64,000 nt of DNA from NCBI RefSeq assembly GCF_041886205.1, contig NZ_CP169029.1; one strand, written 5' to 3'. Within the stretch, counting starts at the first letter, position 1. Every line of letters starts with the position of its first letter. Source of the DNA: Escherichia coli. GTDB lineage: Bacteria; Pseudomonadota; Gammaproteobacteria; Enterobacterales; Enterobacteriaceae. The position numbers are program-made. Positions 55,201 to 58,200 of this stretch are shown piece after piece.

Positions 55201-58200
55201 ATATTGCCGTAAAACTCCGGCGAGGTGTCCAGGTTGTGGTTGTAGTAATCCAGCCCGGCGTTCGCGAGGCGCTGCGCCTGAGATTCACTCAACGTGCCCA
55301 GCGTCATACACGCCTCCAGCCCCATCGCTTTTACCCCCTGCACCATTTGTTCCAGGTACGGCATATCGCGTTCGTGGGGATTCTTCCACGCCGCGCCCAT
55401 ACAGAAGCGCGTCGATCCTGCCGCTTTCGCTTTGCGCGCCGACTCCAGCACCTGTTCAACTTCCATCAACCGCTCGGCTTCCAGCCCGGTTTTGTAGCGC
55501 GAGCTTTGCGGGCAGTATTTGCAATCTTCCGGACAAGCTCCGGTCTTAATCGACAGCAACGTGCTGACCTGCACCTGACGAGGATCGAAATGCTGGCGAT
55601 GCACCTGCTGCGCTTCAAACAGCAGATCCAGCAACGGTTTTTCAAATAATTCTGTGACTTGCGACAATGTCCAGCGTGGGCGGTGAGCCATGGGGCTTCT
55701 CCAAAACGTGTTTTTTGTTGTTAATTCGGTGTAGACTTGTAAACCTAAATCTTTTCAATTTGGTTTACAAGTCGATTATGACAACGGACGATCTTGCCTT
55801 TGACCAACGCCATATCTGGCACCCATACACATCCATGACCTCCCCTCTGCCGGTTTATCCGGTGGTGAGCGCCGAAGGTTGCGAGCTGATTTTGTCTGAC
55901 GGCAGACGCCTGGTTGACGGTATGTCGTCCTGGTGGGCGGCGATCCACGGCTACAATCACCCGCAGCTTAATGCGGCGATGAAGTCGCAAATTGATGCCA
56001 TGTCGCATGTGATGTTTGGCGGTATCACCCATGCGCCAGCCATTGAGCTGTGCCGCAAACTGGTGGCGATGACGCCGCAACCGCTGGAGTGCGTTTTTCT
56101 CGCGGACTCCGGTTCCGTAGCGGTGGAAGTGGCGATGAAAATGGCGTTGCAGTACTGGCAAGCCAAAGGCGAAGCGCGCCAGCGTTTTCTGACCTTCCGC
56201 AATGGTTATCATGGCGATACCTTTGGCGCGATGTCGGTGTGCGATCCGGATAACTCAATGCACAGTCTGTGGAAAGGCTACCTGCCAGAAAACCTGTTTG
56301 CTCCCGCCCCGCAAAGCCGCATGGATGGCGAATGGGATGAGCGCGATATGGTGGGCTTTGCCCGCCTGATGGCGGCGCATCGTCATGAAATCGCGGCGGT
56401 GATCATTGAGCCGATTGTCCAGGGCGCAGGCGGGATGCGCATGTACCATCCGGAATGGTTAAAACGAATCCGCAAAATGTGCGATCGCGAAGGTATCTTG
56501 CTGATTGCCGACGAGATCGCCACCGGATTTGGTCGTACCGGCAAACTGTTTGCCTGTGAATATGCAGAAATCGCGCCGGACATTTTGTGCCTCGGTAAAG
56601 CCTTAACCGGCGGCACAATGACCCTTTCCGCCACACTTACCACGCGCGAGGTTGCAGAAACCATCAGTAACGGCGAAGCCGGCTGCTTTATGCATGGGCC
56701 AACTTTTATGGGCAATCCGCTGGCCTGCGCGGCAGCAAACGCCAGCCTGGCGATTATCGAATCCGGCGAATGGCAGCAGCAGGTGGCGGCTATTGAAGTG
56801 CAGCTGCGCGAGCAACTGGCACCAGCCCGTGATGCCGAAATGGTTGCCGATGTGCGCGTACTGGGGGCAATCGGTGTGGTCGAAACCACTCGTCCGGTGA
56901 ATATGGCGGCGCTGCAAAAATTCTTTGTCGAACAGGGTGTCTGGATCCGGCCTTTTGGCAAACTGATTTACCTGATGCCGCCCTATATTATTCTCCCGCA
57001 ACAGTTGCAGCGTCTGACCGCAGCGGTTAACCGCGCGGTACAGGATGAAACATTTTTTTGCCAATAACGGGAAGTCCGCGTGAGGGTTTCTGGCTACACT
57101 TTCTGCAAACAAGAAAGGAGGGTTCATGAAACTCATCAGTAACGATCTGCGCGATGGCGATAAATTGCCGCATCGTCATGTCTTTAACGGCATGGGTTAC
57201 GATGGCGATAATATTTCACCGCATCTGGCGTGGGATGATGTTCCTGCGGGAACGAAAAGTTTTGTTGTCACCTGCTACGACCCGGATGCGCCAACCGGCT
57301 CCGGCTGGTGGCACTGGGTAGTTGTTAACTTACCCGCTGATACCCGCGTATTACCGCAAGGGTTTGGCTCTGGTCTGGTAGCAATGCCAGACGGCGTTTT
57401 GCAGACGCGTACCGACTTTGGTAAAACCGGGTACGATGGCGCAGCACCGCCGAAAGGCGAAACTCATCGCTACATTTTTACCGTTCACGCGCTGGATATA
57501 GAACGTATTGATGTCGATGAAGGTGCCAGCGGCGCGATGGTCGGGTTTAACGTTCATTTCCACTCTCTGGCAAGCGCCTCGATTACTGCGATGTTTAGTT
57601 AATCACTCTGCCAGATGGCGCAATGCCATCTGGTATCACTTAAAGGTATTAAAAACAACTTTTTGTCTTTTTACCTTCCCGTTTCGCTCAAGTTAGTATA
57701 AAAAAGCTGAACGCGAAACATTAAAAACCATTAATATCAATGTGTTACAATATCTTTAGTCTAAAAAATAGACTACATGATGCTACAAAACACAACATAT
57801 CCAGTCACTATGAATCAACTACTTAGATAGTATTAGTGACCTGAGACAGAGCATTAGCGCAAGGTGATTTTTGTCTTCTTGCGCTAATTTTTTGTTATCA
57901 AACATGTCGCACTCCAGAGAAGCACAAAGCCTTGCAATCCAGTGCAAAGATTTGTGTGCCTCAGTTTTGTCTAAGTGTTCTACTGAAAACATAGTAAAAT
58001 CGGCAACAGCTGGAAATCATTCAATACTCGCACTATCGAAAGTTCACCAGCCAACCGCAGCACGTTCTTGCATACGACGTGCTGCGGTTTTCTTTATGAT
58101 TTATGCACAATGGACAATTTGAAATTATTGATGATTGTATGGTGCATCGTTTTCTGAACCTACACTGATTTTTTGGTATAGCCTTGCCTAGCCAGTCTTA

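Follow-up and report, generated by a model that had tools for sequence, protein, structure and literature searches.

Two tandem terminator-like hairpins beside attR of a lambda-type Escherichia coli prophage: lambda tI/sib and the 3′ end of a widespread conserved module

Introduction

Phage lambda ends its int transcripts at an element that lies beside the attachment site. As established for lambda, int transcripts started at pI stop at the U tract of the terminator tI (Schindler and Echols 1981, cited in PMC5300877; PMC2951348), and N-antiterminated read-through from pL completes a longer stem, called sib, which is a substrate for RNase III and from which the int mRNA decays in the 3′-to-5′ direction (PMC5300877, PMC2951348). 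In this classical model the extended stem needs bases past the U tract, so that only read-through transcripts (from pL, N-modified) form the RNase III substrate. Here we analyse a stretch of 64,000 nucleotides (nt) from E. coli (contig NZ_CP169029.1 of assembly GCF_041886205.1; hereafter the window), in which two hairpins, each followed by a T tract, lie in tandem just inside a prophage, between the host gene ybhB and the diguanylate cyclase gene dgcX. We propose that hairpin 1, the tI/sib element, and hairpin 2, hereafter T2, are inherited transcription stops of the leftward (int / b-region) unit of a lambda-type phage, now in the integrated state, and we put the probability of this reading at roughly three in four.

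Other described systems come close to parts of the locus. A moron is a gene added between phage genes together with a promoter and a terminator of its own (Juhala et al. 2000, as cited in PMC4104026). CssrB, the chromosome-encoded Shigella small regulatory RNA (sRNA) B, gives a northern band of about 180 nt in Shigella flexneri, with a 3′ end that is a prediction and not a mapped position (Peng et al. 2011, PMC3071730). As for dgcX, Richter et al. 2014 found the gene at attB beside varied prophage remnants, and its single-copy lacZ fusion was the most strongly expressed diguanylate cyclase fusion in E. coli, with transcription by sigma-70 and sigma-S polymerase (PMC4287979).

Hairpin 1 corresponds to lambda tI/sib

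The lambda-type core GCTTTTTTATACTAA is found at a single place in the window, where 0 copies are expected by chance. With ybhB and bioA on one side of it and a lambda-type P arm on the other, the junction is attR (Table 1), and it belongs to a lambda-type prophage that runs rightward out of the window; attL and int lie outside. The interval from att to sib is 88.7% identical to lambda 27471-27742 and 97% identical to HK97.

On the plus strand, 146 nt separate the att core from the start of hairpin 1, which is on the P-arm side. Its stem pairs A57853-G57864 with U57877-U57888 (12 pairs, with a small inner stem) and passes into a T run, T57888-T57893, followed by GTT. The 56-nt fold reaches -25.6 kcal/mol (z = -6.75), and none of 200 shuffled sequences folded as well. 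In a four-way alignment of the window, lambda, HK97 and 434, all 50 columns of window 57846-57895 are invariant. This segment coincides with the 'sib retroregulation site' annotated in HK97, while 57854-57893 coincides with the 'Transcription terminator tI' of O276 and with a 'terminator' feature of phage 434. When mapped on lambda, the hairpin and its U tract occupy 27578-27538 on the int strand, 274 nt past the int stop codon. The longer stem of sib is also predicted: an upper stem of 12 bp stands on a lower stem of 7-10 bp, in which the purine-rich GAGACAGAG pairs with UUUUUUGUUAU, that is, with the U tract and the bases beyond it.

Hairpin 1 and lambda tI/sib (~27538-27590) thus have in common the side of att, the distance from it, the strand relation to int, the hairpin, the U tract and the extended stem. 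They differ in two bases just upstream (GA versus TA), where the window matches HK97; in addition, the window copy is in the prophage configuration at attR, where int is not adjacent. Judged by its sequence, hairpin 1 is an already described element, lambda tI/sib, in its textbook position. The initial annotation of this DNA had linked both hairpins, by their orientation, to the lambda sib/tI element, an idea that would fall if there were no homology to lambda sib. For hairpin 1 the lambda region aligns with 50 of 50 positions identical and the idea stands. For hairpin 2 it does not: no element like hairpin 2 is found beside lambda sib, and this hairpin is part of another conserved module. HK97 and HK106 do have one beside sib.

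In the classical model integration separates sib from int, and therefore retroregulation would not be exercised at the present site of the element.

Two minor features adjoin tI. An imperfect palindrome lies just past it (window 57921-57960) and is common to lambda (27510-27471), 434, the Stx phages, Sf101 and Gally; either strand gives a moderately stable fold (z about -3). The record of phage DN1 / DE3 (L006:1799-1960) annotates a minus-strand 'antisense RNA' of 162 nt which equals the window from ~57898 onward and ends 5 nt from the tI T tract; an Rfam search gave no match to it.

Hairpin 2 carries a strong intrinsic-terminator signal

In hairpin 2, A58053-U58066 pairs with G58076-U58089 (14 pairs, 9-nt loop), and the tail UUUUCUUUAU, which extends to 58097, has seven U in the nine nt after the stem. 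The fold reaches -24.0 kcal/mol (z = -5.21; 0 of 200 shuffles as good). Scanning both strands of the entire window for hairpins that abut a T-rich tail, we obtained 336 candidates, among which hairpin 2 ranked second (-23.2 kcal/mol) and hairpin 1 fifth (-18.7 kcal/mol). A simple terminator scan with a loop limit of 8 nt missed both hairpins, whose loops measure 12 nt (hairpin 1) and 9 nt (hairpin 2). Since it consists of a GC-rich stem-loop followed by a U-rich tract, hairpin 2 qualifies by sequence as a strong intrinsic-terminator signal. Two hairpin plus T-tract structures had been predicted here, oriented against transcription that arrives from ybhB/bioA; we find both on the plus strand, in this orientation and within 1-2 nt of the predicted coordinates. 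The conservation of both hairpins in other phages and the compensatory changes in hairpin 2 (see below) show that they are more than chance.

We also considered that hairpin 2 might act mainly on the minus strand, as a terminator or 3′-end protector of the late tail-fibre/pin operon that is bidirectional at the convergent junction. In many phages the stop codon of pin lies a few nt from the hairpin, or that of a tail-fibre gene 25 nt away, and the Rfam family CssrB (RF02799) is defined on this strand, with a 3′ hairpin that is the reverse complement of T2. The upstream consensus of CssrB, moreover, matches one downstream class of the T2 module, on the reverse strand of the ipaH-adjacent interval. 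However, neither hairpin is followed by a U tract on the opposite strand, where hairpin 2 meets UUGGCUGG instead, and among its variable pairs the plus strand pairs better (28 cells of G:U type vs 4 of A:C type). In the window, dgcX and a separate hairpin (59707-59743) stand between tfa and T2. As to CssrB, its 3′ end is itself a prediction, and the window, on the strand opposite to T2, scores 44.1 bits vs a gathering threshold of 76, with about 100 nt of the model missing. The alignment is confined to the 3′ hairpin and a few bases beside it, and we rejected membership of hairpin 2 in RF02799. A role mainly on the minus strand is therefore improbable. Hairpin 2 is better described, from its sequence and surroundings, as a previously unannotated intrinsic terminator at a convergent junction, an element of a familiar kind.

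Hairpin 2 is the end of a widespread module

BLAST and pattern scans place hairpin 2 at the 3′ end of a conserved non-coding module of about 95 nt (window ~57994-58097), in which GTAAAATCGG...CTGGAAATCATTCAATACTCGCACTATCGAAAGTTCACCAGCC precedes the hairpin. The module matches 243 phage records and at least 120 IMG/VR contigs. Partial or full matches to window 57800-58600 occur in 4197 of 5426 complete E. coli genomes, at a median of 2 and up to 9 places per genome; this count takes in any part of 57800-58600, and the partial hits that we sampled fall mostly on the T2 module. The module is probably present in most E. coli genomes.

HK106 matches the window at 93.7% through position 58097. Both HK106 and HK97 have sib and then the T2 module in tandem, with no ea59-ea31 between them. 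HK97 differs from the window in that the module directly abuts the sib U tract (the palindrome 57921-57960 is missing), the hairpin is bulged by 1 nt and followed by UUUCAUUUAU, tfa is convergent at 166 nt and there is no dgcX. Lambda has its own copy at ~24150-24262, between ea31 and ea47. As in the window, this copy has the same block and an intact hairpin on the same strand after a leftward gene, and it precedes a gene whose promoter is annotated in the HK629 record; unlike in the window, it has CUCUACCAUA in place of a U tract, and sib is 3.3 kb away. We know of no function annotated or described for the lambda copy. Our search for literature on transcripts of the lambda ea31-ea47 interval found none, and none of the papers in the literature searched contains the module sequence.

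The distance between the two elements follows from what stands between them. In the window tI and T2 are 160 nt apart, and in lambda, where ea59-ea31 intervene, 3.3 kb; the two hairpins are in tandem here because ea59-ea31 are absent. When lambda, the Stx phages, HK106 and HK97 are compared, the ancestral order appears to have been attP, sib/tI, the palindrome (57921-57960), optional ea59-ea31, the T2 module and then the cargo slot or tail-fibre end.

The module does not code for protein. Open reading frames (ORFs) at 57819-57992 (minus strand) and 57871-58122 (plus strand), as well as HK629 gp27, match no PHROG family, and together with the indels of a single nt among the variants this marks the module as non-coding.

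Pairing is conserved. An alignment of 40 distinct variants keeps the T2 hairpin paired in 97.9% of its cells. Compensatory changes occur at four pairs, among them C-G to U-A in 14 sequences and A-U to G-C in 9, and none of 500 shuffles reached the observed covariation score. The inner eight pairs were fixed by the search pattern and their invariance carries no information. At the variable pairs, cells of G:U type exceed those of A:C type as given above, which indicates that the plus strand folds as RNA. For a second helix, GGCUGR/YCAGCC, support is weak: a single pair covaries, and the G:U/A:C balance is ambiguous. A U-rich tail (five or more T among the nine nt that follow the stem) comes after the hairpin in 22 of the 40 variants, and a U tract is thus not a family-wide feature.

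Neighbours of the module and the cargo slot

In every context examined, the plus strand of T2 runs in the direction int to attP to b-region, which in the prophage is inward from attR. The genes upstream all present their plus-strand 3′ ends to the module. Among the matches listed, a DinI-like gene is found there in 23 loci, with its stop codon about 10 nt away; elsewhere the neighbour is an ea31-like HNH gene at about 250 nt, as in lambda, or Int/sib, as in HK97. Examples linked to a DinI-like gene include IMG/VR loci such as L012 (module on the minus strand, 5761-5782) and L018/L021.

Downstream, two types of arrangement are seen. In the convergent type T2 faces tfa, a tail fibre gene 25 nt away, or the invertase gene pin, whose stop codon comes within a few nt of the hairpin. 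In the cargo type it is followed on the plus strand by DgcX, NleG, an IpaH-type NEL E3 ligase, EcoRII or ea47. The Shigella-type class L056 / L093 has the T2 hairpin about 300 nt upstream of the IpaH-type NEL E3 ligase gene. A class with Stf and Tfa downstream, both on the plus strand, had looked like a second location within the late operon and was rejected as such; it is the Pin-invertible tail-fibre segment. From these neighbourhoods, the T2 module would close the leftward unit at the junction with the late operon and form the left border of a cargo slot.

The sequence conservation around the hairpin admits other accounts. First, the module may persist mainly as a DNA-level linker for homologous swapping of cargo and tail-fibre cassettes, with the hairpin secondary. 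The upstream and downstream sequence classes assort independently, with joints at or within the hairpin, recombinant variants such as L066 exist, two loci are broken mid-hairpin, and the number of matching places per genome (given above) is as a linker would have it. Yet the stem pairing is kept by compensatory changes, which a linker does not need. We regard the linker as a doubtful but possible main role, and one that is compatible with termination. The two broken loci are on contigs L111 and L116, where a rearrangement has split the module mid-hairpin, between CGACGTG and TGAAGTGG.

Second, hairpin 2 and the 5′ block could make up an sRNA, free-standing or derived from a 3′ untranslated region (3′UTR), with the hairpin as its terminator/Hfq module and upstream termination incidental. 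The roughly 60 nt 5′ of the hairpin are conserved at 80-95% across phages with wholly different flanking genes, the block is non-coding, and the second helix has its covarying pair. One sequence class shows a promoter-like TTGAAT-18-TAAAAT at the 5′ edge of the module, the position past the DinI-like stop codon is 3′UTR-like, and prophages are rich in sRNAs (PMC4104026, PMC8550237). Against this, a usable -35 is absent from the variant of the window and from most classes, the second helix is the ambiguous one described above, and Rfam searches at permissive thresholds assigned no plus-strand family to either hairpin, the sub-threshold CssrB match on the reverse strand being the sole hit. The absence of the module sequence from the literature searched also counts against it. 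An sRNA is for these reasons an unlikely explanation.

Specific forms of it were tried and rejected. A promoter of the module at the conserved GTAAAAT edge has a plausible -35 in one sequence class only, which is not that of the window. The published sequences of AgvB and AsxR are unrelated to hairpin 2, and those sRNAs lie in the PR′ region. The probe sequence for PasB is absent from the window, and the PasB I-J locus in E2348/69 has no T2 module.

A broader suggestion is that the T2 module (~57994-58097) is an unrecognised, very widespread structured RNA of lambdoid prophages, with a role beyond termination, which borders a slot for virulence cargo (dgcX, nleG, ipaH). We offer this tentatively and consider it unlikely as it stands. 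The additional role may be that of a 3′UTR-derived regulatory RNA, or of a stability or processing element for the leftward early transcript. Two options may apply to the conserved 5′ block: it may belong to a processed or 3′UTR-derived RNA, or it may act as a linker for recombination at the cargo slot.

dgcX has its own promoter

The initial annotation had also suggested that dgcX uses a promoter of its own. The primers of the published fusion (Richter et al. 2014, PMC4287979) match window 57944-57971 and 58339-58360, so that the fused fragment, -412..+18, corresponds to window ~57944-58365. This fragment holds T2 and neither tI nor ybhB, and was strongly expressed; a strong promoter therefore lies within ~57944-58347, and the suggestion agrees with the published data. 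If T2 terminates, the promoter lies downstream of it. A consensus scan gives a candidate there (Table 1), whose -10 region is kept in a 79%-identical allele, and finds no promoter-like site on the plus strand between tI and T2.

On the minus strand, a promoter-like TTGATA-18-AATGAT is present at the dgcX start (window 58358-58329). It would drive antisense transcription through T2 and tI, and such transcription would meet no U tract at either.

Away from attR, dgcX is found at two more chromosomal sites: beside sitD and, as a divergent form with 79% identity, beside an alpha/beta hydrolase gene. Both keep the T2 hairpin about 250 nt upstream and lack tI. The full ybhB-attR-tI-T2-dgcX arrangement is found in about 590 of the 5426 complete genomes.

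These data bear on the question whether selection in this lineage favoured the terminator pair for insulating dgcX, which is the adaptive form of the idea, also put forward in the initial annotation, that they shield the gene from bio-operon read-through. T2 stays upstream of dgcX in all three contexts, its U-rich tail (7 of 9) always accompanies the gene and is among the best of the family, and the whole arrangement is fixed in the genomes just counted. However, HK97, HK106, lambda and the Stx phages, which have no dgcX, carry both hairpins in the same order and orientation, and therefore the hairpins were inherited, not acquired for dgcX. In the same slot nleG and EcoRII sit behind variants without a U tract, and tI is absent from the other dgcX contexts. 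Selection as an insulator is thus very unlikely. Insulation of dgcX from bioA-ybhB is plausible and would be a by-product of inherited phage signals.

The gene itself has the attributes of a moron: it lies between the T2 hairpin and tfa, has published promoter activity (with a predicted promoter position) and ends in a 3′ hairpin, 59707-59743. As noted above for the cargo type, nleG, ipaH, EcoRII or ea47 take the same place in other phages, which adds to the likeness. Unlike in a moron, the upstream hairpin is part of the phage backbone, and only its U-rich tail travels with dgcX.

Two proposed inherited stops in an integrated phage

The reading that we favour, two inherited stops of the leftward phage unit, starts from the identity, position, fold and conservation of the two hairpins and from the presence of a promoter for dgcX. 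As long as the phage is free or excised, int mRNA started at pI would stop at tI and read-through from pL would be cut by RNase III. Integration at the att core would then move tI/sib to attR, away from int, where it would face polymerase coming from bioA-ybhB. At the junction of the leftward unit with the 3′ end of the tail-fibre/pin late operon, the T2 module would be the closing element of that unit, and the slot just after hairpin 2 would be a cargo position, taken here by dgcX with its own promoter. Both tI and T2 would efficiently stop ordinary (unmodified) polymerase in vivo, and dgcX would thereby be uncoupled from biotin-regulated bio transcription as a side effect.

Several points weigh against this reading. 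In mEp234 the integrase gene points away from the T2 module, so that a description as the end of the int unit fails there; for the same reason we rejected T2 as a general analogue of sib for other integrases. No U-rich tail is present in 18 of the 40 distinct T2 variants, and termination is therefore not the sole conserved role of the module. The approximately 60 conserved nt 5′ of the hairpin, set between unrelated flanks, are not accounted for by termination either. Our searches for transcript data on this locus found none, and the efficiency of both hairpins in vivo is a prediction from sequence. Furthermore, ybhB ends in a strong hairpin of its own, although without a U tract, and read-through from ybhB is only putative. 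The hairpin is probably an inefficient stop, since it lacks the U tract, and some read-through toward attR is plausible. Finally, lom and stf are truncated and attL and int lie outside the window, so that the phage-state role of both hairpins may never operate here.

For the locus, the result is one of housekeeping. The gene dgcX, found in the O104:H4 outbreak lineage and in about 11% of complete E. coli genomes, codes for a virulence-associated diguanylate cyclase; the result gives a reason why its transcription should be independent of the adjacent biotin-regulated host operon, and the elements that would shield it are inherited phage punctuation and no new device. The value for annotation is modest: a single conserved hairpin module marks the site in lambdoid prophages where cargo such as dgcX, nleG or ipaH is found. 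This module is unannotated on its functional strand, the lambda copy included, and the family merits a note by annotators.

Other features of the locus

The features of the locus are collected in Table 1.

Table 1. Features around the attR junction, with coordinates in the 64-kb window
Feature	Coordinates	Strand	Evidence
bioB, in the bio region	within the window	-	
bioA	55667-57067	+	ORF list
ybhB, final host gene of the bioA-ybhB unit, reads toward the prophage	57126-57602	+	ORF list; annotated 'ybhB: kinase inhibitor' in identical genomes
Hairpin 3′ of ybhB, 11 bp, then UAUCACUU (no U tract)	57609-57635	+	fold -19.4 kcal/mol, z -4.8
att core O of attR, lambda type, 15 bp, GCTTTTTTATACTAA	57693-57707	-	exact match
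P arm of attP (attR = P-O-B′)	57708-57845	not assigned	identity to lambda/HK97; four-way alignment
lambda sib; contains tI hairpin 57853-57888 and U tract 57888-57893	57843-57900	+	identity, record annotations, folds
5′ block of T2 module, GTAAAATCGG...CCAGCC, non-coding	57994-58052	+	alignment of 40 variants, 1-nt indels; no PHROG family
T2: GC-rich 14-bp hairpin (58053-58089) and UUUUCUUUAU	58053-58097	+	folds, scan, compensatory changes
Candidate dgcX promoter TTGACA-17-TAGTAT, 10/12, with TATACT overlapping the -10	58247-58275	+	consensus scan; inside the lacZ fragment
dgcX (MASE4-GGDEF diguanylate cyclase), cargo gene 3′ of T2	58348-59679	+	Pfam GGDEF 3.5e-44, MASE4 7.8e-36
AT-rich palindromic hairpin at the convergent dgcX/tfa junction	59707-59743	.	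fold -15 kcal/mol, z -6.7
tfa (tail fibre assembly), end of the phage late operon, convergent with dgcX	59753-60337	-	Pfam Caudo_TAP 1.2e-43

The hairpin 3′ of ybhB may either stop transcription weakly or stabilise the RNA of the host unit. The hairpin at 59707-59743 is probably a bidirectional terminator shared by dgcX and tfa, with UUUAUU on the minus strand.

After tfa the interior of the prophage continues with a short stf fragment, a truncated lom, J and I. At window 60337-61105, lom is cut to 74 of 199 profile positions and adjoins the stf fragment; together these point to a deletion in the late operon and to a prophage that is probably defective. Within tfa, Rfam reports a full-length match to IS009 (window 59796-59994, minus strand) with 225 bits vs a gathering threshold of 117.

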